Under the pieces are notes generated by a model. The model saw only the letters and a list, made by a program, of their open reading frames with translations. It was not told where the DNA came from and searched no databases. A stretch of DNA of 58,548 bases, taken from positions 1 to 58,548 of IMG/VR virus record IMGVR_UViG_3300045855_000047; one strand, written 5' to 3'. The stretch comes from a virus (taxonomy: Duplodnaviria > Caudoviricetes). Position 1 is the first letter of the stretch. The number at the start of each line of letters is the position of its first letter. Both the position numbers and the translations under genes were made by a program. This document shows positions 3,999 through 30,664 of this stretch, in pieces.

Positions 3999-4030
3999 GG
4001 AGAGTTGCCGGGTCTTATTTGGAGATCCGC

Positions 4031-7000
4031 ATGGGCGCTTTTGACGACTTGATTCCGGCTTCTGGTGGCGGTGGTGCTTTTGATGACCTGGTACCGCAAA
4101 AACGCGAGGAGTCTGGGGGGGCCAAGGCGCTGCGCTTGGCTGATGCAACTTACAAGGCTATTGGTTCCGGGCTCATTAAGGGCTCTGCTGACCTGGCCTC
4201 TGGCATTGGCAACGCCTCAATCGATCCTTCATCTTTTGCGATGTCCACCATCCTGGGTGGTGTAGCTGCTGCCGACCGTGGCGTTACAGCCGTTGGGAAT
4301 TGGGTTTCACCAGGTAGCGCAACCCCGAGCGAGGGGATCCAGCAGACCGCGCAGGATGCTGCCGCATTCGCTGCGGCCGAGCGCGAAAAGGCAATCCAGC
4401 AGGCACGCATGCGCCAGGGCAACGACTTCAAGAATGACCTGGTGAAGATGGGCGTTCAGGTGCGCGATGCGGGGCGCACGGTGTCTGGCGCCATGCAGGA
4501 CTTCGACCAGAACAACAACCCCACGTTGACCGAGCAGAGCAAGGCCATCAACGATGCGACCGGCTTTGTGGATACCACTAAGGCCATGTTCAACAACCCG
4601 GTTGGCACTATCAACCAACTGTCCAACTCTGCCCCGGGCATGGCCGCAGGCCTGGGTCTATCACGTGCTGCCTCCATGGCGCGCATGGCTGGACTGGAAG
4701 CTGGTGCTGGAGCCACTGCCATCGAGGCGGCAAAGGTGAAGGCTATTTCATCAGCCAGCACTGCCGGCGCCGTGTCTGAGGCTGCACAAGCTGCCATTCA
4801 GGACCGCGAGAGCGTTTATCAACAGGTGGCGGGTACTCCATTCGACCAACTGGCCGAGAAGTCCCCACGCTTCAATGAAATTGTGGCCAAGGTGGGCGAC
4901 CAGGCCCGGGCCCGCCAGATCCTGGCAAACGAACTGGCCGACCAGGTGACCCTGGGCGCCGGCGTTGTCACTGGCCTTGGCACCATCGGTGTGAACAAGC
5001 TGTTTGGCGGTGACACCACGGCCAAGATTGTCAGCGGCCTGGAGAAAACCACGGCCAAGACTGCCGCAAAGGATGTGCTGCAGGAGGGTGTGGAGGAAAC
5101 GCTGCAGGGCGTTCCCGAGGATCTGGTGCAGCACGGCGCACTGAGTCAGGCCGACAAGGACAAGAAGCTGGATCTGGGTGGATCTGCCGCGCAAAACTTC
5201 TGGGCTGGCGCGCTGATGGCCTCGCATGGCGCTGGCGGCTCGTACATAAAGGACAAGATTGCCGACTACAAGGATGGTAAAGCGGCCACTCCACCGGCTG
5301 ATCCGCTAGACCCAAATCCGAGCTCCGCGACTCCCAATACACCGCCTCCATCTGCCCCGGCTGGCGCTGCTGCCACGCCCGAAGTTTCAGCCGCTGAGAA
5401 GGCCTTGATCACACCGGTAGAGCTCACCAGCCTGGACCGGGTGAATTCCATTGGTACCGAGCTTGAAGGGTTGCAGGCGCGCCAGCAGGAACTGGCACCG
5501 GGCGGCGCCTATGGTCCGATGTTCGACCAGGAGCGCACCGAAGTCGCTACCAAGATCGCGGAACTGAGCCAGGAGCGTGCCGACCTGTCCAAAGACTGGG
5601 CGAAACCGGTATTTGGAAATGCAACAACGGTAACCCTTCCGAGTGGCGCTGTTGTTGCTGCACATTGGGCTGTTATTGATGCTGGCGAGGCACTTCCAAG
5701 CCATGACATCAATCTGAAATCCAATGACAGCTACGACAAATCTCTACAGCCAAGGGATCGCGGAGAACGCCATGGGTACGAATTGCAAATCGCTGGCATT
5801 GTCCAGAGATACAACCCGGCAATGCTTGATGAATCCCCACTGGCGGGCATGGGTGCGCCAACGATGCGCATGGATGGATCGGTTATTGATGGAAACGGAA
5901 GGGAAATTGCAACGCAGCGGGTTTATCGTGCCAATGGACAAAAAGCTGCGGAACTTCGCGCTTATGTGAGTGCGAACTCTGATCGCAAGGGCATTCCTCC
6001 TGAAGCCTTTTTGCACAAGGCAAACCCGCAGTTTGTGAGGGTGATCGACCACATTCCCGGGTTCAATTACGGAGAATTTGCGAAACAAGCCAATGAGTCG
6101 GTAATGGCACCGATGTCGCCCAGCGAAACCGCCAAGTCGGATGCCAACCGCATCGACACCATGGAGGATCTGAAAGCTGACGATAACGGTGATTTCTCCA
6201 ATGCCGCCTCGCAGCCGTTCATTCGCCGCTTCATGGCCCGCCTGCCCGCCACAGAGCAGGCCGGGATGATCGACGCCAGCGGCGCGCTATCCACCACCGG
6301 CTATGCCCGGGTGCGCAATGCTGTGCTGGCCAAGGCCTACGGTGATTCGCCAGTGCTGGCCCGCATGACCGAGAGCATGGACGATAACCTGCGTAATGTG
6401 AGCAAGGCCCTGCTGCTGGCTGCACCCAAGGTGGCGCAGATGCGCGAGGCCGTGGGCGCCGGCAACCGCTTTGATGCCGACATCACGCCGGACCTGATGG
6501 GCGCTGTCGAGGAACTGTCCCGCCTGAAAGAGAAGGGCACATCCGTCGAGGATGCACTGGCCCAGGCTGGCATGTTTGGCGATGACCAGCCCCAAGAGGT
6601 CAAGGATCTGCTGCGCTTCCTGTCGGAGAACCTGCGCCGGCCGCGCAAGATTGCCGACTTCATCACCGCCTATATGGAAGCCCTGGATGCTGCCGGTGAC
6701 CCGAACCAGGGCTCACTGCTGGGTGACGTGCAAGCGCCCACCAAGGGAGAACTTTTAACCGCTGCCAAAAGGAGCCAAGATGCTGCCGGACCAACCAACA
6801 CCACGACTGCCACGGACACCCAGCGGGCAGACTCTGCAAAAAACCCGCAAGATGGTGTTGCGCCTCAAGGCCGACCAGAAAATGCGCAGAACGATCAAGG
6901 CGGCACTGGCCGCGATGGGTCTGCCCAAGGATCCGATACCCGACTCAGCCGCCAACGGAATAGCGCCCCTGTAGGCGAAGCCTCCGAGTGGGTTAACTTT

Positions 7001-10000
7001 CCCAAGGATTCCGGCACTATCGGCATTCCCCGCGCGGATATGCCCCAGATCAAAGGGGAGCATCGTGGCGCGCTGATTCAGTTCCTGCAAGCACGCGGCA
7101 TCGAGCACAAGACCAAGGAAATCCCGGCCGCTGACTTGAAGCCCACGCAAGCTGAGTTCTCCACCAAGAAGGCCGCGCGCTGGAGTGAGGTGCGTGATGG
7201 TGTGGACCGTTCCGTGCTGGTGTCCAAAGATGGCCATATTCTGGATGGGCACCACCAGTGGGTGGCGGCGCTGGCCGCGAATGAGCCGGTCAAAGCCATC
7301 GTGTTGAACGCTCCGATTCGTGAGCTCATGGCCAACGTGTTCCAGTTCCCCAGCGTCAAGCAGTCAGGGGATTCTGCAAGTGCATCCGAGGCGGACGGCC
7401 GCGCTAAGCCGCGCGAGGACTTCAAGCAGGCTATGGCCGAGCTTGCTGACCTGGTGGCCGACAAGCTGGGCACTCGCGTGATGATGATGCCGTCCGGCGA
7501 TCCCAAGATCATGGCCGTGCTGATCAAGCTGTTCGACTCTGCCATTCGCGTGGTGGGTACCGACTTGAAGGCCGCAACCAAGTGGGTGAAGGCGCAACTC
7601 AAGGGCATGCCCGAGACAAAGCCCTACTGGAACAAGATCACCGACAAGGACTATTCTGCTGCCGCCATGGCTGCGCTGGAGCAGCAAGCCACGGCGCATG
7701 TGGATGATCTATTCTCTGCTGCAGAAAAGAGCCAGGCCGATCTGTTCAGCAACGAGCCGGCCGCGCCCAAGGTGGCCATGATCGACGGCCGGGCCTATGA
7801 CTACACCTTTAAGACCGGGGATAACTTCAACCCGCCAAGCGTCAGTGACTTCTTGCCAGATAAAGAAGTCAAATTGGCTGATGGCCTGGTGGCCAAATAC
7901 TATTCCAATAAGCCAGAGGTCAAACTTGCGGCCGATATACTAGCGCGCGGTGAAAAGCTGATCCAGCCGTTCATTGACAAGGCCAATTTGGTCAAGTCGG
8001 AATATGACCAGAAGATTATCGACATTGCCACGCGTACCAAGGCTATCGGGCAATTGCTTGCTCCCATCAAGAGCACCAAACGTGCAGTTGAAAAAATGCA
8101 CGATGATGCGATTGAGAAGAATCGAGAAATGCGCGCTGATGATGTGAAGGACTTGCTGCGCGCCACCATTGTCGTATCACGGTATGAGGACGCCCAGGCA
8201 GTCATCAATGAAATCGGCAAAGAATTCAAAATCCTGCGCACGAAAAATAGAACTGAAACCGACTTCATTCAAGCCAAGGCGGAAGGCCGCAAGGGTACCG
8301 GCGGATATTCTGATGTGTTGGTTAACGTACAAATGCTCGATGGCACAGTCGCTGAAATACAGGTCAATATTCCTGAAATGTTGGCTGCAAAAGAAGGCCC
8401 TGATAAGCAGGGCCAGGGTCACAAGCTATTTGAAGCAGCTAGGGAGCAAAAAACTACAAATCCTGCTCTGTATGCTGAGATTTATGAAGCCATGGAAGGC
8501 TTCTACGATGCTACGTTCTTGGCAGCCCAGTCGCGTGCATTGGATGCCGCAGCCAAAAATCCTTTGGGATCATCAGTAAACCCCAATGCACGCGATGGTA
8601 AGTCCTTGATGCCAGGGCAAGGTATCAATGAGTCCCCATCGTCGGACAGCTTGAACCAGGAACCATCTGGGAAACAGACAAAATCATCACCATCCGAGTC
8701 TCCGGAAAACTTGCAACCTGGGGGGAAAACTTCTGGAACTTTCATATCAAACTCCAATACAGATAGTGTAGCGAAAAAAACCGAAAACGGATATAGTCAG
8801 AGCAATCTTTTTGGGGAAAGCAATGGGAATGATACAGACGGTGGAACTGGCTCTCAAGGAAAAGGCGCCGGCGCTGTATCAGCAGCTGGCCGCAAGCGGG
8901 GCACTCAAGGCCCACGTGAGGGATCTAGCGGAGCAGATCAACGCGGAGACGGTACGCCTGGTGCAGGAGGACCGTCGCAAGAATCACTGGGACAAACTGG
9001 GACCGATGGAACTGGCGGGAAAACTGAAAATGTCGGACGCACTCAATCAAGAGCGCGCGATGGCGGACCTGCTGGAGTTCCCGCAGGACGAGACATCCCC
9101 GCAAAGTCTGGGCTAAATTACGAGTTTGGACCTGATGACCTGACCTATGAAGGTTCATGGGTAAAGAAGGCCGCGCAAAACGTCGACGCAGTTGAATTGC
9201 TGGTGAAGCTGGAGGCCGAAGGGCGCCAGGCTACCAAGGACGAGCAGACTGTGCTGGCCAAGTTCGTCGGTTGGGGATCATCCGAAGTGGCCAATGCCAT
9301 CTTTGGTACGGCCGGCGACAAGAACGAGTCCAAGATCAAGGCCTTTAATCTGGCGAAGGCTGCGATTGAAAACAGCGCCAGCATCAGCTACAGCAACCCG
9401 AACTACTGGACCATCAAGGCCGTGCTGGATCAGGTTGGCCGGGCGCGCGTGCCATACCGATCTGACATCGATTCGGCATTCATCAGCCCCAAGAATTTCG
9501 GCCTGGAGTCCAGCGACATCAAGTATGGTGACCTGCGCGCACGCCTCAAGGCGGTAATGTCAAAAGATGAGTGGGCCGAGGCTTCGCGCTCTACCCAGTA
9601 CGCGCACTACACCAGCCGCGCCATCGTCACCTCCATGTATAAGGCCCTGGATCGCATGGGTTTCAAGGGCGGCGCCATGCTGGAGCCAGGCGCTGGCATT
9701 GGGGTATTCCCCGGCCTGATGCCTGCAGCCATGGCGGCAAACACTGCCTATACCGGCATCGAGTTCGATTCGATCACTGGGCGCATCCTCAAGCAGCTGT
9801 TCCCCGATGAGCGCATCCTGGTCGAGTCCTTTGTGGATTCCAAGCTGCCCAAGAATTTCTATGATGTGGCCGTTGGTAACCCGCCGTTTTCCGGCACCCA
9901 GATCCTGGGTGATCCTGAATACCAGAAACACGCTTTCAACCTGCACGACTACTTCTTCGCCAAGTCCATTGATCGTGTGAAACCCGGTGGCCTGGTGGTC

Positions 10001-13000
10001 TATGTCACCAGCAAGGGCACCATGGACAAGCTGGGCGACAAGGCCCGCCAGTACCTGGCCGGCAAAGCGGATCTGGTGGGCGCCATCCGCCTGCCGCAAA
10101 CCGCCTTCAAGCAAAACGCTGGTACCGAGGTAGTCACCGATGTGATCTTCCTTCGCAAGAAGGTACCCGGTGAAACCTTCGCGCATGCACAGGCCTGGCT
10201 CAAGACGGCCACAGTCAAGACGCCGGACGGCCCGGCCATCATCAACGAGTATTTCGCTGCTCACCCTGAAATGGTGCTTGGTACCCATGCGCTGCAGGGC
10301 TCCATGTATAAGGCCAACGAGTACACGGTGCTGCCGCTGCCTGGCGACATTGAAGAGCACTTCGCCAGAGCAGTGGAAAAGCTGCCGGCTGACATCTATG
10401 TGACCCAGCGCGGCACCAGCGCCGAAGCGGCCAAGGTCCGTGAAATCGACTTCAACCCCAAGGCCCAAAAGGAGGGTAACTACTACGTGTCCGATGCCGG
10501 CGTGCTGATGGTGCGTGAGGGCGGTGTGGGCATGCGCGCCGAGGACGTTGCAGCCAAGGATATGGAACTGGTTAAGGACTTTGTGCCACTGCGCGATGCC
10601 CTGAAACAGGCCCACTACGACCAGTTGAACAATGGCGAGTGGGAGCAGAGCATGGTCGCTCTGCAAAAGGCCTATGCCGCCTTCACCAAGAAGCACGGCC
10701 AGATCAACCAGTTCACCACCAAGATGGTCAAGACCACGGTGGTGGACGAGGAAACCGGCGAGAAATTTACCGACGAGGAAGCCCGGCGCACCCACACCCT
10801 GCTTTCCAAGATCAAGAACGACCCGGATTACACCCTGGTCATGGCGCTGGAAAACATCAACGACGATACCGGCGTGATCAGCCCCAGCGCGTTCCTGACC
10901 GAGCGCGTGTTGGGCAAGCAGGCCACGGCGCAGGTCAGCACCCCCACGGATGCGCTGCTGTCGGTACTGAATGACGTGGGCCATGTGGATATGGCGGCAA
11001 TCGCCCAGCGGCTCAATGTGTCAGAACAGGATGCCATCAGCGCCCTGGGTTCCTCCGTCTACCAAGACCCAGAGGGCGAGTGGGTGACGGCTGACGAATA
11101 CCAGAGCGGCAACGTCAAGCGCAAGCTGGAGATTGCCCGCTCCGTTGCCAAGTCCGACAAGGCCTTCGAGCGCAATGTCACTGCCTTGGAGGCGGTACAG
11201 CCAGAAGCCAAGACCCCGAGCCAGATCAATGCCAGCCTGGGCATGAACTGGATTCCCGGCCAGGTGTATGCCGACTTCCTGCAAGAGGTCACCGGCGTGC
11301 GCGCGCGGGTGGAATGGAATGCCCGCACCAAGCAGTGGATTGTGGAAGAGAAGGCCGGTGGCGCCACGATGCAAGCCCGGGCAGATTGGGGTACAGACCG
11401 CCGCAATGCGACATCCCTGCTGGAGCATGCGCTGACTGGGCGCAAGGTACGCATCGATTCGCGCGCTGGCAAGGACGAGGCGCCCAAGTTCGACCCGGCC
11501 GCAACCGAGGCGGCAAATGCCAAGCTGGTCGCTCTGCAAAACGAATTCCAACAGTGGATCTGGAAAGACCCAGAGCGCACCAATACCCTGGTGCGGGAGT
11601 TCAACGACAAGTTCAACACCACGGTACCGCGCTCATTCGATGGCACGCACCTGACGCTGCCGGGTACCTCCAAACGCTGGAGCGTGTTCGATCACGTTAA
11701 GCGCGGCGCCTGGCGTATCGTGGCGCGCGGCAATACCTACCTGGCACACGCAGTGGGCTCCGGCAAGACGTTCCAAATGGTGATTTCCGCCATGGAGCAA
11801 AAGCGCCTAGGCTTGATCAAGAAGCCCATGATGGTGGTGCCAAACCACATGCTGCAGCAGTTTGCCCGCGAGTGGCAGGATCTGTACCCGGCCGCGCGCC
11901 TGATGGTGGCTGACGAAAACAACTTCCACACCGACAACCGCCGCCGCTTCGTGTCGCGCGTGGCGCTGTCTGACCTGGACGGCGTGATCATCACCCAGTC
12001 GGCATTCAAGCTGCTGGACCTGGACCCCGAGTTCAAGCAACGCATGATTCAGGAGCAACTTGACTTCATGCGTGCGGCGCTGGTTGAGGCTGGCGGAAAC
12101 CCGGACACCCCGGGCAAGAACGGCCGCGAACCCCGCATCAAGCAGATCGAGAAGCAGATCGAGAACATGGAACAAAAGCTCGAAGCGGCCATGTCGTCGG
12201 TGGGCAAGGACAAGAATGCCCGCTTTGACGAGTTGGGTGTGGACATGCTCTATGTGGACGAGGCCCACAACTACCGCAAGCTGGATTTCACGACAAACCG
12301 CGAAGTCAAGGGCATCACCCCTGCAGGCTCCGGCCAGGCCTTTGACCTCTTCATGAAGTCGCGGTACCTGGAAGAAAAGACGCCGGGCCGCTCCCTGGTG
12401 ATGGCCTCCGGCACACCGGTTACCAATACCGTAGCCGAGCTCTACACCGTGCAGAAATTCATGGACCGCCAGGCCCTAATCGACCGTGGAATGGAGGACT
12501 TCGATAGCTGGGCGGCAATGTTCGGCCGTGAGAAAACCACGCTGGAGCCCAACGCCGCAGGAAAATACGAGCCGGTTACCCGGTTCTCCAAGTTCGTCAA
12601 CGTGCCCGAGCTCACGCAAATGTTCCGTGAGTATGCGGACGTGCTGAATTCTGACCACCTGGCAGCACTCCTGGGCGACAAGCGCCCCAAGGTGGATGGT
12701 GGATCGCGCAAGATCACCATCACACCCAAGACGGACGACTACGCTGAATACCAGGATGTGCTGTCTGAGCGTGTAGCCCAGTCCAAGGCCTGGAAGCCTT
12801 CGCCAGACCAGCCAAACAACCCAGACCCCATCATCAAGATCATTGGCGATGGCCGGCTGGCAGCAATCGATATGCGCTTCATTGATCCGAGCCTGAAAAA
12901 TGACCCGGACTCAAAGCTGAACCGCATGATTGATGACGTGATCAAGTCCTACAAGGACACGTCGAGCATGGAGTACACCGACAAGGCCGGCAACCCAGAG

Positions 13001-16000
13001 CCCAACAAGGGCGCATCCATGATGGTGTTCTCTGACCTGGGTTTCGGCGCTGGTGTGGCGGCAAGCCGTGGCTTCAATGCCCGGGCCTGGTTCGAGAAGC
13101 GTATGCGTGATTCAGGCGTGCCCATGGCGCAAGTAGCGTTCATGTCCGATTACAAGAAGTCGGCCGACAAGCTCAAGCTGTTCAAGGATGTGAATGCCGG
13201 GCGCATGCGTATCCTGGTTGGCTCCAGCAAGAACATGGGCACCGGTGTGAACGCGCAACAGCGCCTCAAGTCCCTGTTCCACCTGGATAGCCCATGGTAC
13301 CCGGCTGACCTGGAGCAGCGCGAGGGCCGCATCATCCGCCAGGGCAACAAGAACCCCTTGGTGCAGATTTACGCCTACGCTGCAAAGGGCACGTATGACG
13401 AGAATATGTGGAAGATGCTGGCCAGCAAGCAGTATTTCATTGACCAGGCCCTGAGCGGTGATGCGAACCTGCGAGAGATTGAGGATCTGGACTCCATGAG
13501 CCAGTACGACCTTGCTGCCGCCATGATCGCCGATGACCCCCGTATCCTGCAGTTAGCCGGCGCCCGGGCTGACATCGAGAAGATGCAGCGCCTGTATCAG
13601 GCCCATGAGCAGCAGCGCATGAAGTTCCTGGAGCAGTCGCGTAACGCTACATCCACGATTGCCTATGCCGAGCACCAGCTGGTGAAGGCCACGGCGGATG
13701 CCGGCCTGGTGCAGGATCTGTCCGGCGACAAGTTCACGGCCAAGGCTGGCAAGAAGGCCTACACCGTGCGTTCAGACTGGGCGCAGGCCCTGATCGACCG
13801 TTACAAGGAACTGGCTGCAAGGGTTGAAACCCAGACCCAGACCATTGGCCAGATTTCAGGTTTCAATGTGGCATTCAAGGCTGAGAATGTAGCCGGCCAA
13901 TACCTGGCCCAGATCATGCTGGAAACACCTGAGCAGCTGGTACTGGCATGGGAAGGTGGCGTAAGCCCCGTTGGTATGTCAATGCGGGCAACCAACGCAC
14001 TGGCGGCTATGGCTACTTTGCCTTATAAGCTGCGTGATCGCATTGTCGAGGCCCGGGCCCTGGTGGATGCCCTTGGTACCCGCTTGCAAACCCCGTTCCC
14101 CATGGCGCAGATGCTGGCAGAGAAGGTGCGCGAGGCTTCTGACCTGGAAGCCCAGATCGCCGCCGATAGCAAGGCCAAGGATGCGGCCAAAGCTGCTGAA
14201 TCCCCGGCGGAAGGTGAAACCAAGCTGTCCCGTGGGACTGGTGGCGGCATGGACGTATCAATCCTGGCTGCGCTGGCCACCAAGATCAAGAAGGCCATGC
14301 CAAATATGCCCATGGTGCACGTGCTGGAATCGCCAGCAAAGGCACCCAAGGCCCTGCGTGACTACATCGAAAAGCAGGGCGCCATGGCTGATGTGGAGGG
14401 CGCTTACCATGATGGTGAGCTCTACCTGTTCGCCTCCGGCCTGTCGGATGCGCTGCGTGCTGAGCACGTACTGGCCGAGCATGAGGCCGCTCACTTCGGC
14501 CTGCGCTCAATGCTGGGTGACTCCCTCAAGACCACCATGCTCATGGTCTACAACAACAACACCTATATCCGGCAGCTGGCAACCGAGTTGCAAAAGCGCG
14601 GCAAGCTGTCCAATGCTGAAGCTACGGAAGAGGCGATTGTAGACATTCCCACTTCGCGCCTGATCAAGCTCCAAGGCTGGCGCAAGCTGGTACATGGCGT
14701 GCACGCATGGCTTGGTGCCTATGGATTCGAGAACATGGCGCGCAAGGTGGGCGACTGGCTCAACGGATCCCTGGATGACCAGCAGCGTGCGGATTTGTTC
14801 GTGGCGAACCTGGTGACGGCGGCACGCCGGCACGTGGCCGGCAAGAATCAGGGCAAGTTTGATACGCAGTCCGGCACCATGCTGGCAAGCTCCATGGCCG
14901 ATGATGCCATGCAGCAAGAGAAATGGCTGATGACCGAGGCGCGCGCCCGGGGATTCAAGGACATCGACCAGTTGGCCGAGCAGGACTACCCCTTGTTCGA
15001 GAAACTGGCCAAGCTGTGGCGCGAGAAGAATCCGGCCGATGAGGGTATCCTGATGTCGCGTGGGGTTAGCGCGCTGCGGCGTTGGGCTGGTAAGTCCAAG
15101 GTTGTGGATGCAAACGGAAATCCCCGGGTGATGTACCACGGCACAACGGCCGATATTTCCACCTTCAAAGAAGGTGCGCCAATTTACGTTGCTGATACCG
15201 GTGCTGCAGCCAGCGAATATGCCAAGCAATTCGGCTATGTGGAAAACGCTGATGCTGGTAATGGCGGAAACGTCATGCCGCTCTATGTCAAGGCTGAAAA
15301 CCCATTCGATTACGAGTCTCCTGAAAATGTAGCCTGGCTGGTGTCCGCGCTCAAGGCATCCGACAAACTCAAGTCGGTACCAATCCAAGAGGATGAGGAT
15401 TACTACCCAGTTTTTGACAGTGCACAAGAGGCACTCAAGGCCGGTGACCCCTACGCATACCGCAGTAAAGTGGTTCAGGATGCCATCGCCAAACGGTTTG
15501 ATTCCTTCTACTCCGTTGCGCGCGGCGTGCGTAATCTGGCCGTGTTCTCCCCCACTCAAGTGAAAAGCGCCATTGGCAACAATGGAGCCTACGACCCAGC
15601 AAACCCGGACATCCGCATGTCGCGCCCGGGTACCGCCGCCCAGCGCGCGGACCAGATCATTCAGACCAATGCCAGCACCGCTAAGCCACTGGACGCAGTA
15701 GCGCGCATGCTGACCCGCGTTACCGGCCTGGAGCGCCTGACCGGCGCCATTTATAACCGTGCTGGCTACCTGCTGGACCGGTTCACCCCGGAAAACGTCA
15801 AGGCTGGCCTGGTGTCGGATTACGGCGTGCCCGAGTCGGTGATCGACCAACGCGCCATGATGCAGGGGCGCCAGCGCGTGCAGTTGCGCCAGGCCGGCGC
15901 CCTGATCGACAAGCTCTCTACCCTGACCCGGGCCGAGTCCCGCGTGGCCTACGCATGGATGAATGAAACCGAAGCCGGCCAGGCCGACTATTTCATGCAG

Positions 16001-18367
16001 CAGCTGCCGCCCGAGTCCGTCAAGATCCTGGAGGACGTGCGCCAGATGATCGACAAGCTCTCCCAGGAGGCCGTGCGCATGGGTCAACTTGGAGCCGATG
16101 TTTACGAAAAAACCAAGTTCGCATACCTGCGCCGGTCCTATGCCAAGTACACCATGGACCAGACCCCAGGCCAAAAGGCGGCGCGTGCGCGCGCAATCTC
16201 TGTGCTGGGTGACCAGTACAAGGGCCGAGGCCTGACTGAGGCTGCGACCATGAAGCAGATCCAGAACGTGGCGCCCGAGTGGTGGAAGCGCAAGCTGGCC
16301 AGCGGCAAAGCCGACAAGGGCCTCAAGGGCGAGAAGTTCATTCGCCTGGAGCGCCGTGCATCGAGCGGGCAGGGCGTCAACCCGCTGCCAGGTGTGGCCG
16401 GCAACAAGGCCCAGGGCCGGCTGCAGGAGGTGCACTACTTCCCAGCCGGTGAGGCGCTGCCTGCCAAGTATGCCGACTGGGACAAGGCCGGCACGTTCGA
16501 GGTGCGCGACACCCAGGGCGAGAAGGTTGTGCTCTGGCGCGACTTCACTAAGGACGAGCGCGAACAGATGGGCGAAATTGACGAGGCCCGCTTTGCCATT
16601 GCCAAGACGCTGCAGGGCATGATCCATGATGTGGAGGTGGGCCGCTACCTGGAATGGCTGGCACACAATCAGGCGCTCAAGGAAGGCCAGACTATCCCGG
16701 GCGCCGTGGTGGATGCATCCGACCGGTACCGCGACACCTTCAAGCCTGGCGAGTGGGTCAAGGTGCCCGATGCCAAGATCAGCGGCACCAGCGTGGCCAA
16801 ATACGGCAAGCTGGCCGGCCGGTACGTCCCGGGCCCGGTGTGGAACGACCTGCGCCAGACAATGAATGGCCAGTTCAAACCATTCGGTGACACCTACGGA
16901 ATGATCCTCTCTGCCTGGAAAACGGCCAAGACGGCGCTATCGCCCGCGGTGCACACCAACAACATCATGTCCAATTTCGTGATGGCCGACTGGCACGATG
17001 TCACTGCCGGCCACACAGCCAAGGCCTTGCGCATCCTCCTGGGTGCGCATGACCAGGGCGGCAAGGGCGTGCTGGGTACCATCGGAAACAAGGCCGCGGG
17101 CGTGATCGGCTCGGCCGACCGTGATGCAGCACGTGAGATTGTGAATCGGTACCTTGATTCTGGCGGTGACATTGGTTCGTGGGCAACAAACGAGATTTCC
17201 AAAAAGCAGATCGAGCCTTTGCTTGATGCCCTGGAAAAGGAACTTGCTGCAACCAACGGTCAATCTGTGCAGGCCCAGGTTGGTATCTTCCATGCGCTGC
17301 AGCATGCCCTGCAAATGCGTTTCCCCAGTGCCTGGGATTCCCTCAAGGGATCCACGACCGGCAAGGTCATTGGCACTGAGGCCAGCACCGTGATCGACCT
17401 CTACCAGTCAGAGGACGAGGTATTCCGCCTCGCTGCCTGGCTCAAGGCCAAGGAAGAGGGCAAGACCGATATGGAAGCGGGCAAGATCGCACGCCGGTCC
17501 TTCATGGACTACAGCATCAATGCACCCTGGGTGCAGGCCCTGCGCAACTCGGCGCTACCCTTCGTGAGCTATACATACCGCGCGGTACCCATGTTCATGG
17601 AGACTGCAGCCAAGAAGCCGCACAAGCTGCTCAAGCTGATGGCCATTGCCGGCGCCCTGAATGCCTTTGGCCTGATGATGGCCGGTGGTGGTGGGGACGA
17701 CAAGGAGCGCAAGCTGCTGCCGGAAGAGAAGGCCGGCCGGGTGTGGGGCCTGGTACCAAAGATGATTCGCATGCCCTGGAATGACCCCAACGGGTCGCCG
17801 GTGTACCTCGACATCCGCCGCTTCATTCCAGTGGGTGACATCTTCGACATTGGGCAAGGGCACTCGGCCATCCCATTGCTGCCGTCCCTGACGCCTGGCG
17901 GGCCGCTGGCCATCCTGGCAGAACTGGCATTGAACAAGACCCAGTTCACAGGCAAGCCCATCACCCTGGACACCGATACCGGCCTGCAGCGGGCAACCAA
18001 GGTGCTGGACTACCTATACAAGGCATTCATGCCCAATCTGCTGGGCGTGCCCGGTACCTATGCGACCACTGGTGTGTTCGATGCAGCCAACGGAAAGACG
18101 GATGCCTTCGGGCGCCAGCAGTCGGTCGCCCAGGCCATGGCTTCAAGCTTTGGCGTGAAGCTGGGTAGTTACCCGGCTGACGTGCTGGCGCGTAACCTGC
18201 GCGGCGCGGCCCAGGCCCAGATCATGGAGATTGACCGCAACATTTCAGGCTTGAAGCGTCAGCGCCAAATGAATGGCATCAGCGCCAGCGAGTTCGATAG
18301 CAAGGTGCAAGTCGAGCAGGAAAAGAAGGCAAAGGTTATGAAGGATCTGGCGGAAAAAATGAACTGA
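4031..18367 (+). CDS. Giant (4778 aa) polyvalent, DarB-like protein: DdrB-like ParB, ParB-like, RelA/SpoT-like, N6-adenine methyltransferase, SNF2-like helicase, zincin, ADP-ribosyltransferase-like and LPD38-like domains
   Basis: GGAG at 4021, ATG at 4031. Motifs in order: LQPRDR (~5745), LDGHHQW (~7240), DLLRA/GYSD/EIQ (8150-8360), LEPGAGIG and NPPF (9878), HAVGSGKT, DEAH, SGTP, QREGRIIRQGN, HEAAH (~14480), VVDANGNPRVMYHGT...FSPTQVKSA (15100-15620). Confidence 0.92.
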   Translation: MGAFDDLIPASGGGGAFDDLVPQKREESGGAKALRLADATYKAIGSGLIKGSADLASGIGNASIDPSSFAMSTILGGVAAADRGVTAVGNWVSPGSATPSEGIQQTAQDAAAFAAAEREKAIQQARMRQGNDFKNDLVKMGVQVRDAGRTVSGAMQDFDQNNNPTLTEQSKAINDATGFVDTTKAMFNNPVGTINQLSNSAPGMAAGLGLSRAASMARMAGLEAGAGATAIEAAKVKAISSASTAGAVSEAAQAAIQDRESVYQQVAGTPFDQLAEKSPRFNEIVAKVGDQARARQILANELADQVTLGAGVVTGLGTIGVNKLFGGDTTAKIVSGLEKTTAKTAAKDVLQEGVEETLQGVPEDLVQHGALSQADKDKKLDLGGSAAQNFWAGALMASHGAGGSYIKDKIADYKDGKAATPPADPLDPNPSSATPNTPPPSAPAGAAATPEVSAAEKALITPVELTSLDRVNSIGTELEGLQARQQELAPGGAYGPMFDQERTEVATKIAELSQERADLSKDWAKPVFGNATTVTLPSGAVVAAHWAVIDAGEALPSHDINLKSNDSYDKSLQPRDRGERHGYELQIAGIVQRYNPAMLDESPLAGMGAPTMRMDGSVIDGNGREIATQRVYRANGQKAAELRAYVSANSDRKGIPPEAFLHKANPQFVRVIDHIPGFNYGEFAKQANESVMAPMSPSETAKSDANRIDTMEDLKADDNGDFSNAASQPFIRRFMARLPATEQAGMIDASGALSTTGYARVRNAVLAKAYGDSPVLARMTESMDDNLRNVSKALLLAAPKVAQMREAVGAGNRFDADITPDLMGAVEELSRLKEKGTSVEDALAQAGMFGDDQPQEVKDLLRFLSENLRRPRKIADFITAYMEALDAAGDPNQGSLLGDVQAPTKGELLTAAKRSQDAAGPTNTTTATDTQRADSAKNPQDGVAPQGRPENAQNDQGGTGRDGSAQGSDTRLSRQRNSAPVGEASEWVNFPKDSGTIGIPRADMPQIKGEHRGALIQFLQARGIEHKTKEIPAADLKPTQAEFSTKKAARWSEVRDGVDRSVLVSKDGHILDGHHQWVAALAANEPVKAIVLNAPIRELMANVFQFPSVKQSGDSASASEADGRAKPREDFKQAMAELADLVADKLGTRVMMMPSGDPKIMAVLIKLFDSAIRVVGTDLKAATKWVKAQLKGMPETKPYWNKITDKDYSAAAMAALEQQATAHVDDLFSAAEKSQADLFSNEPAAPKVAMIDGRAYDYTFKTGDNFNPPSVSDFLPDKEVKLADGLVAKYYSNKPEVKLAADILARGEKLIQPFIDKANLVKSEYDQKIIDIATRTKAIGQLLAPIKSTKRAVEKMHDDAIEKNREMRADDVKDLLRATIVVSRYEDAQAVINEIGKEFKILRTKNRTETDFIQAKAEGRKGTGGYSDVLVNVQMLDGTVAEIQVNIPEMLAAKEGPDKQGQGHKLFEAAREQKTTNPALYAEIYEAMEGFYDATFLAAQSRALDAAAKNPLGSSVNPNARDGKSLMPGQGINESPSSDSLNQEPSGKQTKSSPSESPENLQPGGKTSGTFISNSNTDSVAKKTENGYSQSNLFGESNGNDTDGGTGSQGKGAGAVSAAGRKRGTQGPREGSSGADQRGDGTPGAGGPSQESLGQTGTDGTGGKTENVGRTQSRARDGGPAGVPAGRDIPAKSGLNYEFGPDDLTYEGSWVKKAAQNVDAVELLVKLEAEGRQATKDEQTVLAKFVGWGSSEVANAIFGTAGDKNESKIKAFNLAKAAIENSASISYSNPNYWTIKAVLDQVGRARVPYRSDIDSAFISPKNFGLESSDIKYGDLRARLKAVMSKDEWAEASRSTQYAHYTSRAIVTSMYKALDRMGFKGGAMLEPGAGIGVFPGLMPAAMAANTAYTGIEFDSITGRILKQLFPDERILVESFVDSKLPKNFYDVAVGNPPFSGTQILGDPEYQKHAFNLHDYFFAKSIDRVKPGGLVVYVTSKGTMDKLGDKARQYLAGKADLVGAIRLPQTAFKQNAGTEVVTDVIFLRKKVPGETFAHAQAWLKTATVKTPDGPAIINEYFAAHPEMVLGTHALQGSMYKANEYTVLPLPGDIEEHFARAVEKLPADIYVTQRGTSAEAAKVREIDFNPKAQKEGNYYVSDAGVLMVREGGVGMRAEDVAAKDMELVKDFVPLRDALKQAHYDQLNNGEWEQSMVALQKAYAAFTKKHGQINQFTTKMVKTTVVDEETGEKFTDEEARRTHTLLSKIKNDPDYTLVMALENINDDTGVISPSAFLTERVLGKQATAQVSTPTDALLSVLNDVGHVDMAAIAQRLNVSEQDAISALGSSVYQDPEGEWVTADEYQSGNVKRKLEIARSVAKSDKAFERNVTALEAVQPEAKTPSQINASLGMNWIPGQVYADFLQEVTGVRARVEWNARTKQWIVEEKAGGATMQARADWGTDRRNATSLLEHALTGRKVRIDSRAGKDEAPKFDPAATEAANAKLVALQNEFQQWIWKDPERTNTLVREFNDKFNTTVPRSFDGTHLTLPGTSKRWSVFDHVKRGAWRIVARGNTYLAHAVGSGKTFQMVISAMEQKRLGLIKKPMMVVPNHMLQQFAREWQDLYPAARLMVADENNFHTDNRRRFVSRVALSDLDGVIITQSAFKLLDLDPEFKQRMIQEQLDFMRAALVEAGGNPDTPGKNGREPRIKQIEKQIENMEQKLEAAMSSVGKDKNARFDELGVDMLYVDEAHNYRKLDFTTNREVKGITPAGSGQAFDLFMKSRYLEEKTPGRSLVMASGTPVTNTVAELYTVQKFMDRQALIDRGMEDFDSWAAMFGREKTTLEPNAAGKYEPVTRFSKFVNVPELTQMFREYADVLNSDHLAALLGDKRPKVDGGSRKITITPKTDDYAEYQDVLSERVAQSKAWKPSPDQPNNPDPIIKIIGDGRLAAIDMRFIDPSLKNDPDSKLNRMIDDVIKSYKDTSSMEYTDKAGNPEPNKGASMMVFSDLGFGAGVAASRGFNARAWFEKRMRDSGVPMAQVAFMSDYKKSADKLKLFKDVNAGRMRILVGSSKNMGTGVNAQQRLKSLFHLDSPWYPADLEQREGRIIRQGNKNPLVQIYAYAAKGTYDENMWKMLASKQYFIDQALSGDANLREIEDLDSMSQYDLAAAMIADDPRILQLAGARADIEKMQRLYQAHEQQRMKFLEQSRNATSTIAYAEHQLVKATADAGLVQDLSGDKFTAKAGKKAYTVRSDWAQALIDRYKELAARVETQTQTIGQISGFNVAFKAENVAGQYLAQIMLETPEQLVLAWEGGVSPVGMSMRATNALAAMATLPYKLRDRIVEARALVDALGTRLQTPFPMAQMLAEKVREASDLEAQIAADSKAKDAAKAAESPAEGETKLSRGTGGGMDVSILAALATKIKKAMPNMPMVHVLESPAKAPKALRDYIEKQGAMADVEGAYHDGELYLFASGLSDALRAEHVLAEHEAAHFGLRSMLGDSLKTTMLMVYNNNTYIRQLATELQKRGKLSNAEATEEAIVDIPTSRLIKLQGWRKLVHGVHAWLGAYGFENMARKVGDWLNGSLDDQQRADLFVANLVTAARRHVAGKNQGKFDTQSGTMLASSMADDAMQQEKWLMTEARARGFKDIDQLAEQDYPLFEKLAKLWREKNPADEGILMSRGVSALRRWAGKSKVVDANGNPRVMYHGTTADISTFKEGAPIYVADTGAAASEYAKQFGYVENADAGNGGNVMPLYVKAENPFDYESPENVAWLVSALKASDKLKSVPIQEDEDYYPVFDSAQEALKAGDPYAYRSKVVQDAIAKRFDSFYSVARGVRNLAVFSPTQVKSAIGNNGAYDPANPDIRMSRPGTAAQRADQIIQTNASTAKPLDAVARMLTRVTGLERLTGAIYNRAGYLLDRFTPENVKAGLVSDYGVPESVIDQRAMMQGRQRVQLRQAGALIDKLSTLTRAESRVAYAWMNETEAGQADYFMQQLPPESVKILEDVRQMIDKLSQEAVRMGQLGADVYEKTKFAYLRRSYAKYTMDQTPGQKAARARAISVLGDQYKGRGLTEAATMKQIQNVAPEWWKRKLASGKADKGLKGEKFIRLERRASSGQGVNPLPGVAGNKAQGRLQEVHYFPAGEALPAKYADWDKAGTFEVRDTQGEKVVLWRDFTKDEREQMGEIDEARFAIAKTLQGMIHDVEVGRYLEWLAHNQALKEGQTIPGAVVDASDRYRDTFKPGEWVKVPDAKISGTSVAKYGKLAGRYVPGPVWNDLRQTMNGQFKPFGDTYGMILSAWKTAKTALSPAVHTNNIMSNFVMADWHDVTAGHTAKALRILLGAHDQGGKGVLGTIGNKAAGVIGSADRDAAREIVNRYLDSGGDIGSWATNEISKKQIEPLLDALEKELAATNGQSVQAQVGIFHALQHALQMRFPSAWDSLKGSTTGKVIGTEASTVIDLYQSEDEVFRLAAWLKAKEEGKTDMEAGKIARRSFMDYSINAPWVQALRNSALPFVSYTYRAVPMFMETAAKKPHKLLKLMAIAGALNAFGLMMAGGGGDDKERKLLPEEKAGRVWGLVPKMIRMPWNDPNGSPVYLDIRRFIPVGDIFDIGQGHSAIPLLPSLTPGGPLAILAELALNKTQFTGKPITLDTDTGLQRATKVLDYLYKAFMPNLLGVPGTYATTGVFDAANGKTDAFGRQQSVAQAMASSFGVKLGSYPADVLARNLRGAAQAQIMEIDRNISGLKRQRQMNGISASEFDSKVQVEQEKKAKVMKDLAEKMN
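6780..6974 (+). CDS. Nested +1-frame small basic ORF (64 aa) inside the giant gene
   Basis: AAGGAG 5 nt before ATG 6780. Coincides with a low-complexity linker of the host protein. Confidence 0.45.
   Translation: MLPDQPTPRLPRTPSGQTLQKTRKMVLRLKADQKMRRTIKAALAAMGLPKDPIPDSAANGIAPL
8503..8745 (-). CDS. Nested antisense small acidic protein (80 aa), candidate antitoxin/immunity protein for the RelA/SpoT-like domain
   Basis: Minus-strand GGAG 6 nt before ATG 8745, TACACT -10-like box at 8770-8765. Protein-like sequence MKVPEVFPPGCKFSGDSDGDDFVCFPDGSWFKL. Host frame is S/P-rich and low-complexity over the same span. Confidence 0.65.
   Translation of the reverse strand: MKVPEVFPPGCKFSGDSDGDDFVCFPDGSWFKLSDDGDSLIPCPGIKDLPSRALGFTDDPKGFLAAASNARDWAAKNVAS
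8765..8797. promoter_or_regulatory. Intragenic divergent promoter region with phage operator AACCGAAAACGGAT (8779-8792)
   Basis: AT-rich island. Minus-strand -10 TACACT (8770-8765) and plus-strand -10 TATAGT (8792-8797). The 14-mer matches operators at 27760 and 30645. No good -35 boxes seen. Confidence 0.6.
8823..9116 (+). CDS. Nested +1-frame TnpV-like protein (97 aa; alternative start 8829)
   Basis: GGGGAAAG before ATG. LKEKAPALYQQLAASGALKAHVRDLAEQ...MELAGKLKM...ERAMADLL resembles the TnpV family pattern by eye. Host frame is G/R/T-rich and disordered here. Confidence 0.7.
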   Translation: MGMIQTVELALKEKAPALYQQLAASGALKAHVRDLAEQINAETVRLVQEDRRKNHWDKLGPMELAGKLKMSDALNQERAMADLLEFPQDETSPQSLG

Positions 18368-21548: not shown

Positions 21549-21570
21549 AAAATATCCCTTTTCGGTTATT

Positions 21571-27719: not shown

Positions 27720-27795
27720 TTTTCACTCCTGTTTAATTCCTGACCACATCTGTATTATGAACCGTAAACGGATAACAAACAATCCCCTAACGGTT
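27716..27795 (-). promoter_or_regulatory. Leftward early promoter 2 with two operators and a 29-bp leader shared with promoter 1
   Basis: TTGTTT-17-CATAAT. Operators at 27760-27773 and 27782-27795. 27716-27744 is identical to 29675-29703. Confidence 0.75.
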
Positions 27796-28782: not shown

Positions 28783-28816
28783 AAAATATCCTTTATCGGT
28801 TATTGGTGGACGTGAC

Positions 28817-29776: not shown

Positions 29777-30085
29777 CTAGGCGCTACGTACCAGCTTTAC
29801 AACAGGCTCGGACGGACGGAGTTGGGATTGGATGCGGGTGATGACTGCGTGGAGCTCACCGAGGAACACTTGCGCGTGCTCTTCCTCTATGCACACACCC
29901 TGAGTGATGATGTGGCCGCTGGCCGTTATGCTCAGATTGAGCGTTGCGACTGGTTTGGTATCTGCAATGGCTTGGTCGATATGCCACTGCTTGATTTTGT
30001 TGATGCGCTCCAGACTTGGGCCCGGCTCTTTATTTAGTAGCGCCACTCGCGCGCTTTGCTGACGTTGCGATTCCTTTTTTGCCAT
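29777..30085 (-). CDS. Hypothetical protein downstream of the repressor, probably lysogen-expressed
   Basis: 102-aa ORF overlapping the repressor 3' end. Confidence 0.6.
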   Translation of the reverse strand: MAKKESQRQQSARVALLNKEPGPSLERINKIKQWHIDQAIADTKPVATLNLSITASGHIITQGVCIEEEHAQVFLGELHAVITRIQSQLRPSEPVVKLVRSA

Positions 30086-30569
30086 GGCTCTCTTCCGCGT
30101 TGATCCCTGCACGGTCCCCAGGCTTGCGTGCCGATGCCTTCTTTACTGCTGCGGACAAGGAAGCGGGGACCGGCTGCTCTGAGTTGACCAATATTTGTCG
30201 CGCTGTCCCATCTTGCCGGTTTTTGCGGGTTTCCGCTGATACCGATATGAACGACATCGCTCGGTGTTGATCTTCGTCAGTTAGCTTGCGCCACGCAAGT
30301 ATCAACTGCTGCTCATCGTAATTTGGTGCGATGTGGATCTGTTGCTCATCGTTCCCAAGCGGCTTGATCAGATCCAGCGGCTTAACTCGGTAGGCATCAG
30401 CCAGCTTTTGCAAGACATCGAGCGCGGTGTGCACTTCGCGTGCCAGGATGCGCTGGATAGTTGACTGCGAAAGCCCTGTTTTTTTGTGGATCTTTGTCTG
30501 GGTGTCAAGGTCAGGCCGCTGATCCATCAAGGATCTCAGGCGCAACGCCAGGATGTCTTTTAGTTCCAT
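30030..30569 (-). CDS. CI-like repressor (XRE HTH); start 30569 or 30614
   Basis: TQTKIHKKTGLSQSTIQRIL...LDVLQKLADAYRV HTH, divergent from the cro-like gene. No S24 peptidase domain visible. Confidence 0.85.
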   Translation of the reverse strand: MELKDILALRLRSLMDQRPDLDTQTKIHKKTGLSQSTIQRILAREVHTALDVLQKLADAYRVKPLDLIKPLGNDEQQIHIAPNYDEQQLILAWRKLTDEDQHRAMSFISVSAETRKNRQDGTARQILVNSEQPVPASLSAAVKKASARKPGDRAGINAEESHGKKGIATSAKRASGATK

Positions 30570-30608
30570 GATGGTGTATTCGGTACGCAATAAGCGAGGT
30601 TTCGAGTA

Positions 30609-30664
30609 TTCCATAAACGGTTATTTCTTTGCGGTTGCTAAAATAACCGATATCGGTTTATGAT
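30609..30664 (+). promoter_or_regulatory. OR/PR-like switch
   Basis: Perfect palindrome AACCGATATCGGTT (30645-30658) between TTGCTA (30635) and TATGAT (30659). Second operator at 30609-30622. Confidence 0.82.

Follow-up and report, generated by a model that had tools for sequence, protein, structure and literature searches.

Two probable small genes with a putative shared control region, overprinted on the linker of a giant polyvalent phage gene

Results

A giant polyvalent gene holds two nested reading frames

The DNA analysed here (the window), a complete-length virus record (IMGVR_UViG_3300045855_000047; 58,548 bases), has the gene set of a temperate tailed phage: terminase, portal, internal virion and tail genes, an integrase, RecT and a Cro/CI-type regulator. 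A giant open reading frame (ORF) of the window, free of stops over its whole length, encodes ddrB-ParB, RelA/SpoT-like, Eco57I-type methyltransferase, SNF2 helicase and ART-PolyVal domains. It matches PHROG 'DarB-like antirestriction' and lies at the end of the structural operon, 3' of a DNA-ejection/virion structural gene and 5' of the integrase gene. From these effector domains, the PHROG match and the position beside structural genes, we assign its product as a polyvalent (DarB-like) virion protein. Two small ORFs, one antisense and one in the +1 frame, are nested in the linker between its RelA/SpoT-like domain and its methyltransferase module (Table 1), and the comparisons below suggest that both are probably real genes that run from a shared control region.

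In the frame of the giant ORF (the host frame), the linker, 8503-9116, reads as low complexity, S/P-rich first and G/R/T-rich after. The two nested ORFs diverge from a 77-bp gap (8746-8822) with a G+C content of 37.7%, compared with 59.1% for the giant gene. A sequence-only reading of the window had described this arrangement: the low-complexity linker, the two nested ORFs and, around the AT-rich gap, a GGAG six nucleotides from the antisense ATG, the -10-like boxes TACACT and TATAGT, and the 14-mer AACCGAAAACGGAT with a twin at 27760 that differs by one base (AACCGTAAACGGAT). Each of these elements was recovered at its place. Searches of a cultured-phage collection and of plasmids, at nucleotide and protein level, gave zero matches. 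Related DNA for the +1 comparisons came from one genome, ten viral and 15 metagenome loci (numbered with L below), several of them duplicates.

Table 1. Coordinates of the giant gene, the nested genes and associated features. Positions are those of the window unless a locus is named.
Feature	Position	Strand	Remarks
Giant polyvalent (DarB-like) ORF, host frame	4019-18367	+	4782 aa
RelA/SpoT-homologue (toxSAS-like) domain of giant protein	7886-8518	+	Tas1 match
Terminator-like hairpin and T-run	8396-8414	-	89 nt beyond antisense stop
Nested antisense gene	8503-8745	-	80 aa plus stop; ATG 8745-8743, stop 8505-8503
Shine-Dalgarno site GGAG	8752-8755	-	6 nt before antisense ATG
-10-like box TACACT, antisense gene	8765-8770	-	T1, A2 and T6 invariant in 9/9 aligned loci
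Operator-like dyad AACCGAAAACGGAT	8779-8792	.	Enrichment, early-promoter geometry, relatives
-10-like box TATAGT, +1 gene	8792-8797	+	T1, A2, A4 and T6 invariant in 9/9 loci
G-rich Shine-Dalgarno-like site GGGGA	8813-8817	+	5 nt before ATG at 8823
Nested +1-frame gene	8823-9116	+	97 aa plus stop; predicted four-helix, distantly TnpV-like small protein
Methyltransferase module, N-terminal part, giant protein	9119-9718	+	Starts 3 nt after +1 gene end
Early-region dyad copy AACCGTAAACGGAT	27760-27773	.	One mismatch; on the minus strand abuts CATAAT upstream of leftward gene 27726-27235
Cro/CI-type helix-turn-helix regulator	30030-30614	-	Candidate binder of the dyad
Extra linker ORFs in related loci	L005:9684-9982; L014:162-383; L020:~9740-9973; L021:~5144-5371	+1 frame	Between TAnAAT-type box and TnpV-like gene

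Selection acts on the +1 frame while the host frame drifts

The +1 ORF is open and keeps its length (93-110 codons from its start) in the window and in all 26 loci. Eleven of 20 rows have a GGAG upstream of its ATG, and another five have a G-rich variant. With the window and the 26 loci taken as 27 rows, duplicates included, the host frame around the small ORF runs without a stop for 478-5075 codons, or up to the contig ends, in 25 of them, the two exceptions being L001 and L023. The +1 product was matched at E<=0.001 by 19 of 20 candidate database proteins, which are 95-107 aa long and 39-93% identical to it; substitutions within the family are conservative, and its members share a C-terminal LEFPQDETSP motif.

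Variability at the three nested codon positions, measured over nine closer sequences, is 0.29/0.24/0.40, so that host position 3 is the least variable over the +1 ORF. An independent alignment, made from the host protein in 12 loci, shows the highest variability at host position 3 in 49 of its 53 sliding windows; three of the four exceptional ones are consecutive (8825-9064) and lie over the +1 ORF. In 186 of 190 pairwise comparisons, conservation is higher for the +1 protein than for the host reading. An OLGenie-style count of the ratio of nonsynonymous to synonymous change (dN/dS) gave, for the nested frame, 0.31 for the window against L012, 0.38 for four separate pairs and 0.51 for 36 pairs, with all bootstrap limits below 1; the host frame gave 0.85-1.08, with limits spanning 1. 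Purifying selection acts on the nested +1 frame, and the host frame drifts there.

Random synonymous recodings of the +1 protein leave the host frame open in 2-55% of cases (mean 11%), whereas the actual host frame is open across the +1 gene in all 13 loci tested. Given this openness against expectation, and the absence of stops throughout the giant gene, the stretch codes for two proteins. The nested protein fixes the residues; the host needs merely an open, flexible linker.

The AlphaFold model of the +1 protein has four helices (predicted local distance difference test, pLDDT, 86.7; predicted template modelling score, pTM, 0.72). A hidden Markov model (HMM) search of 1.84 billion representatives returned 154 relatives; among the 150 listed, 145 are <=200 aa, which identifies a family of stand-alone small proteins. 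The possibility that the TnpV-like part is a domain of larger proteins was considered and rejected: only five of those 150 are longer than 200 aa, two of them being repeat noise. TnpV (Pfam PF14198), a transposon-encoded small protein of unknown function, matches the +1 protein with E 9.1e-4 (19.6 bits, under the 27-bit gathering cut-off). Matches at E<=0.01, likewise sub-threshold, were obtained for 15 of 20 family members (best E 1.6e-5) and a match of 16.7 bits for one of ten distant representatives. The nearest protein-atlas clusters carry TnpV with a score of 0.92. The relationship suggested by these matches is distant. Comparison of the model with the PDB returned nothing at E<=0.001 with Foldseek and a best Z of 5.9, inside helical noise, with VIA-align; a profile search of PDB sequences with the family alignment (A1) gave chance-level rows only. 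We consider it very likely that the +1 gene is real.

Two observations concern the ends and the fate of this gene. The last ~17 codons of the +1 gene (9065-9116), which encode the LEFPQDETSP tail of low pLDDT, overlap the start of the methyltransferase module (host ...VPAGRDIPAKSG...), and both frames seem constrained there; distant stand-alone relatives likewise finish in EFP and acidic residues. L001, on a contig of a bacterial metagenome-assembled genome (MAG) with 3.4x coverage and the only relative in the genome collection, has an intact TnpV-like ORF and a host frame closed on both sides (380 codons); it may be a decaying prophage copy or reflect sequencing errors.

The antisense frame is under selection of its own

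An ORF occupies the equivalent antisense place in ten loci plus the near-identical L024, and a second scan added seven more viral records, in all of which the antisense ORF lies inside a giant frame. In the ten loci and L024 the encoded proteins begin M-[KR]-[VL]-P-[DE]-x-F-P-x-G-C-x-F ... F-V-E-F-P-D-G. Of 8000 candidates scored in a profile search, 50 database proteins, mostly of 65-92 aa, matched at E<=0.001. The antisense ATG is invariant in the aligned loci, fixing a host wobble base, and CCTC or CTCC (plus strand) is kept at the place of its Shine-Dalgarno site across differing host residues. AlphaFold predicts a compact protein of four strands and a C-terminal helix (pLDDT 91.0, pTM 0.79); the host reading of the same segment is S/P/G/N-rich and of low complexity.

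The antisense and host frames share wobble positions and are therefore equally conserved, so that conservation alone cannot discriminate an antisense gene from its host. Amino-acid conservation was accordingly dropped as evidence for this gene, the host being equally conserved and same-phase antisense by-products being present in the methyltransferase region. We compared changes that alter only the antisense protein with changes that alter only the host protein; their ratio is 0.73 (bootstrap 0.55-0.95; 99.1% of replicates below 1), a figure drawn from only 10-15 nearly saturated sites per pair. Two same-phase control regions that are host-only gave ratios of 3.18 (2.48-4.17) and 1.21 (1.09-1.35). 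The antisense frame is thus under purifying selection separable from that on the host frame, and the antisense gene is likely to be real.

The protein atlas gave zero usable matches for the antisense protein. For its model, Foldseek returned nothing in the PDB at E<=0.001 and VIA-align nothing at Z>=5, and a profile search of PDB sequences with the family alignment (A3) gave chance-level rows only. In 401 genomes of the class of the relative-bearing MAG, the family has two weak partial matches in long frames (E 1.1e-5 and 4.2e-4), which are uninformative.

Beyond the antisense stop lies a terminator-like hairpin with a T-run, in a GPDKQ insertion (five residues, in the RelA/SpoT-like domain) that is unique to the window among 15 aligned sequences. 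It is a possible, weak candidate for the end of the antisense transcript; two terminator-like sites were found against 1.3 expected.

The gap between the nested starts resembles an early control region

The two TAnAnT boxes stand 21 bp apart, with no alignment gap between them, in nine of nine aligned loci, and the host residues encoded at the boxes vary among these loci. Sites with up to three mismatches to the 14-mer number 14 in the window, against 2.96 expected (maximum of 100 shuffles, 7), and the dyad AWCC-N6-GGWT has 11 sites against 3.07 expected (largest shuffle, 9). The early region (21.5-30.7 kb) has seven of these 11 exact sites. At 8779 (TATAGT), 27760 (CATAAT) and 29718 (TATAAT), the last two read on the minus strand, dyad and -10 box adjoin in identical geometry.

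Three relatives have their own variants of the nested dyad: AACCA...TGGTT, ATCCG...TGGAT and AACCG...CGGAT. Dyads of each relative's own pattern occur 4, 10 and 7 times genome-wide, compared with 1, 1 and 0 for a reversed-pattern control; a fourth relative has one dyad site. These recurring, locus-specific dyads look like operators for each phage's own regulator, and in the window the Cro/CI-type protein encoded at 30030-30614 is the likely candidate for binding. The earlier proposal that the nested dyad is an operator of the kind used in the early region gains support from the shared geometry at early promoters and from these variants. That proposal had left room for expression either early or in the lysogen; if the dyad binds a CI-like repressor, expression in the lysogen would be the less likely of the two.

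At 21554-21567 and 28788-28801, minus-strand copies of the dyad are followed by ATTTT and ATG, and the right half-site also serves a leftward early gene for ribosome binding. Translation may be a further target of the dyad, or the dyad-ATTTT-ATG units may be repeated gene-start cassettes.

The antisense gene accompanies a Tas1-like domain

The RelA/SpoT-like domain that precedes the linker has a sole sequence match in the PDB, the type VI (p)ppApp synthetase effector Tas1 (6ox6_A, E 6.6e-4); Pfam RelA_SpoT matches it with E 0.0017 and 19.1 bits, under the 27-bit cut-off. In an alignment of the domain (A4), K62, R66, K70, D89, R92, G140-Y141 and E157 are invariant and D143, I158 and Q159 nearly so, with K62, R66 and K70 forming a basic cluster; the conserved motifs look catalytic and may correspond to those of RelA/SpoT homologues (RSH).

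Scored with the family HMM, 16 of the 17 domain-bearing records have the antisense gene, as does one of six records that have enough flank and no domain (Fisher p 0.001, relatedness of the records ignored). Its 3' end falls within about 100 nt of the domain end in 16 of 16 cases. Tis1, the immunity protein of Tas1 (6ox6_B), ranks 2 of 48,161 chains against the antisense model (Z 4.3, root-mean-square deviation 3.8, 61 residues), a Z that falls in the tool's stated noise range, and we treat this weak resemblance as a lead, not a match. PMC11782079 describes small structured domains of the Tis1 type that neutralise (pp)pApp-making toxSAS enzymes by blocking the acceptor site. Taken together, the Tas1-like domain, the co-occurrence, the weak Tis1 resemblance and the known neutralisers make the antisense protein a candidate antidote, that is, an immunity protein or antitoxin-like inhibitor of the Tas1-like domain, an assignment to which we give slightly less than an even chance.

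Besides the low Z, several observations pull the other way. Because the loci come from related phages, they cannot be counted as independent events. L007 is the sole record to have the antisense gene and no RelA/SpoT-like domain. L008 has the domain, 2 kb further upstream, and the ORF at its equivalent place is only marginally similar (9 bits). A profile search of PDB sequences (E<=10) found no similarity of the antisense family to Tis1, and Tis1 is missing from the Foldseek PDB list for the antisense model.

The antisense product may instead be another small early protein, for example an anti-defence factor or a regulator, in which case both nested genes would still be real and early-expressed and the link to the domain merely positional: the antisense 3' end overlaps the domain end, and the pair would be inherited together. 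The antisense gene of L007, kept without the domain, fits this account, as does the lack of a significant fold or sequence match to known immunity proteins, and loci without the domain hold other, unrelated small ORFs in the same linker, suggesting a general cargo site. The distribution of 16 of 17 against one of six speaks for a closer tie, the closest solved relative of the domain is a toxin that needs an immunity protein (PMC11782079), and a phage that makes an active toxSAS domain in its own host needs a neutraliser. We regard the merely positional link as possible, if rather doubtful.

Two further points concern individual records. The copy in L007/L016 (9711-9923, minus strand) stands alone with its usual control region, the upstream domain of the giant gene being ParB-like there, and resembles the orphan immunity genes of toxin systems by analogy. 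In L008, the ORF was tried as a divergent antisense copy and rejected on its family HMM score; it is counted as a miss.

The linker holds variable cargo

In most loci the TnpV-like gene ends 3-20 nt before the methyltransferase module, and L027 and L029 are without both. This pattern indicates that the TnpV-like gene travels with the methyltransferase module and not with the RelA/SpoT-like domain.

Four loci without the RelA/SpoT-like domain (L005, L014, L020 and L021) have a TAnAAT-type box, a strong AGGAG, an ATG and an extra small ORF, in each case inside the open giant frame. These extra ORFs are of 73-84 aa, in the same +1 frame, and mutually unrelated between loci; in L005, L020 and L021 their stop directly adjoins the ATG of the TnpV-like gene. 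In L005 the exact dyad of the window stands beside the TAnAAT-type box. Because unrelated small ORFs occupy the same linker in loci without the domain, the linker appears to behave as a cargo site for a nested early operon.

Discussion

Weighing the nested genes

Some findings tell against two real genes with a shared control region. A sigma-70 promoter has -10 and -35 hexamers 16-18 bp apart; no acceptable -35 hexamers were found, and a sigma-70 scanner for that reason called neither proposed promoter. Its one promoter-like site on the minus strand, 8857-8829 (10/12), lies inside the +1 gene, and chance would give 0.7 sites of this kind. The DNA for the C-terminal motif of the +1 protein also encodes the conserved beginning of the methyltransferase module, and host position 3 is again the most variable there (sliding window 9005-9124), so that the host frame may supply part of the motif's conservation. 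For the antisense gene, amino-acid identity is 0.51 against 0.48 in the host frame, with substitution quality alike; the antisense-only/host-only ratio draws on few, nearly saturated sites, and its interval for the first 50 antisense codons, 0.49-1.19, spans 1. The protein-atlas recognition score of the antisense protein is 1877, whereas 91 in 100 known-family proteins reach 2300.

These points bear most directly on the possibility that the TnpV-like +1 gene alone is real, the antisense ORF being an echo of a conserved tail of the host frame behind the RelA/SpoT-like domain, in a phase where stops are rare. The two frames are alike in identity and substitution quality, the host frame is open in 94% of synonymous recodings, and over the methyltransferase region antisense ORFs occur in 14 of 14 loci, of 76-145 codons in the same phase, at conserved places, and of 200-600 in another. 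The low atlas score also fits an echo, and co-occurrence with the domain would be expected if the segment were the tail of the domain. An echo would not produce the depletion of antisense-only changes (0.73, against 3.18 and 1.21 in the controls), an invariant ATG that fixes a host wobble base, a CCTC kept over differing host residues, or a conserved -10 box upstream; nor does it account for a compact fold of pLDDT 91 where the host frame is of low complexity, or for L007, which keeps the segment without the domain. We hold this explanation to be unlikely.

It is very unlikely that the giant ORF is in reality two proteins, N-terminal and C-terminal, with the small genes in an ordinary intergenic region and the host frame open by accident. 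The host dN/dS near 1 and a region bearing all the control signals of an intergenic space are what such a split would produce, but the N-terminal part has no stop at which to terminate anywhere in 4019-18367, and a host frame open across the +1 gene in 13 of 13 loci (~11% expected), within a giant frame open in 25 of 27 rows, is hard to ascribe to accident.

Programmed ribosomal frameshifting from the giant ORF, to give a shorter protein ending in a TnpV-like domain, would suit the exact +1 relation on the same strand, and phages do use frameshifts to obtain two products. The +1 frame is, however, closed by a stop <=12 nt before its start in L005, L014, L018/L019, L020 and L021 (five distinct loci), which excludes frameshift access from upstream; the open extension upstream of the start varies from 0 to 119 codons among loci and is not conserved, the Shine-Dalgarno site and ATG are, and the relatives are stand-alone proteins of ~100 aa. 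We find this reading hardly credible. Equally improbable is that both nested ORFs are non-functional by-products of composition and host-gene conservation. Long alternative-frame ORFs are indeed common in this gene of 59% G+C, but the selection, start-site, structure and control-region evidence tells against such a reading.

A proposed arrangement

Two real genes run from a shared control region is the reading that we prefer. The sequence-only reading had proposed that a promoter, an operator and two genes form a unit of their own, overprinted on a late virion gene, and had suggested checking in homologues whether the nested frames stay open under purifying selection while the host frame drifts. 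In the relatives both nested frames do so, and the unit itself is largely supported, as judged from the conserved families, starts, ribosome-binding sites, boxes and dyad.

The linker of the giant gene would thus be triple-use DNA. Its host frame would be kept open for one polypeptide, with linker residues free of selection, and a leftward gene (8745-8503) and a rightward gene (8823-9116) would be overwritten on it. Both would share the 77-bp AT-rich region, with its back-to-back -10 boxes and an operator-like dyad of early-promoter type. Because of this shared control region, the small genes are probably transcribed separately from the giant gene, together with the early genes, and would be shut off by a dyad-binding protein; promoter activity and repression are both inferred. 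The antisense protein might neutralise the Tas1-like domain in the producing cell, or switch the domain off after injection. Since the members of the +1 family are stand-alone proteins of ~100 aa, the small genes probably form the older layer, and the giant ORF would have arisen by reading through these genes.

We also offer, as a conjecture more doubtful than the antidote itself, that linkers of giant injected polyvalent proteins are harbours for independently transcribed early genes, including an antidote pair and variable cargo, with the giant ORF formed by read-through. Such a locus could act as an inject-then-neutralise timer, in which the phage injects an alarmone-type toxin with its DNA and then makes the antidote from its first transcripts.

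Relation to known systems

Overprinted phage genes are known from lambda Rz/Rz1 and from the nested genes of phiX174, where, as here, a second protein lies wholly inside a larger gene in another frame. The present locus differs from these in having two nested genes on opposite strands with a divergent control region of their own (the latter putative), in that constraint lies on the nested frames while the host frame drifts, and in that the +1 family exists stand-alone, the host frame probably being the newer layer. Toxin-immunity cassettes fused to phage MuF proteins or found at the C-termini of polymorphic toxins, which PMC5512222 mentions, have the cognate protector gene adjacent, and the candidate antidote here would likewise be a small protector adjoining a phage-carried toxin domain. 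In those cassettes, the immunity gene is on the same strand, after the stop codon of the toxin, whereas the present locus has an internal putative toxin domain, with the candidate protector antisense over the linker that follows.

In Tas1-Tis1 (PDB 6OX6) and the toxSAS modules FaRel and PhRel, an RSH domain is paired with a small protein; here a putative RSH domain, with Tas1 as its nearest solved relative, has a small adjacent protein of ~80 aa. Unlike in those modules, the putative toxin here is an internal domain of a 4782-aa virion protein and the candidate antidote is on the opposite strand within the same ORF; the antisense protein is without sequence similarity to Tis1 and has the weak fold resemblance described above. 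The +1 protein is like TnpV (PF14198) in size and helical make-up, with sub-threshold matches, and unlike it in scoring under the cut-off and in having its own C-terminal LEFPxDE motif.

Polyvalent proteins, including those like DarB of P1, combine many effector domains in one virion-delivered polypeptide, as does the giant protein. The account of phage-type polyvalent proteins by Iyer et al. 2017 (PMC5512222) lists RelA/SpoT domains among them. The words 'overlapping', 'antisense' and 'TnpV' are absent from its main text, which does not describe nested genes, an internal promoter or operator, or an antidote. Searched at the level of listings and abstracts, the literature on overlaps in polyvalent proteins, opposite-strand immunity genes and antisense overprinting in phages gave no description of the arrangement.

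Overprinted genes of phages and toxin-immunity pairs are both familiar; it is their combination that is new. It comprises an apparent opposite-strand nested pair with a putative operator-controlled divergent region of its own within a giant virion gene, selection that acts on the nested frames and not on the host frame, and what may be an antidote antisense to the polyprotein that carries its toxin.

Gene callers are blind to genes that lie wholly inside a larger ORF, and a layer of phage coding is consequently missing from annotations; the nested layer seen here is conserved across >20 metagenomic phage records. The locus offers a clear natural example of constrained nested frames within a long host frame that is just kept open, the reverse of the usual picture of overprinting, and it suggests a route to the assembly of giant polyvalent genes. 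An antidote role of the antisense protein, if it holds, would explain how a phage can produce and carry an alarmone-synthetase toxin without poisoning its own infection, and would represent a new antitoxin fold for toxSAS enzymes. The shared operator, if it is one, yields a testable prediction of timing.

Other reading frames in the giant gene

Long alternative-frame ORFs are frequent in the giant gene, given here with its 59% G+C. One of them, antisense and of 474 aa (9560-10984, minus strand), is in the codon-aligned antisense phase; we treat it as a by-product of codon usage and not as evidence of a gene, because that phase is open for 200-600 codons in 14 of 14 loci. A longer antisense ORF, of 719 aa, lies at 14507-16666 on the minus strand.

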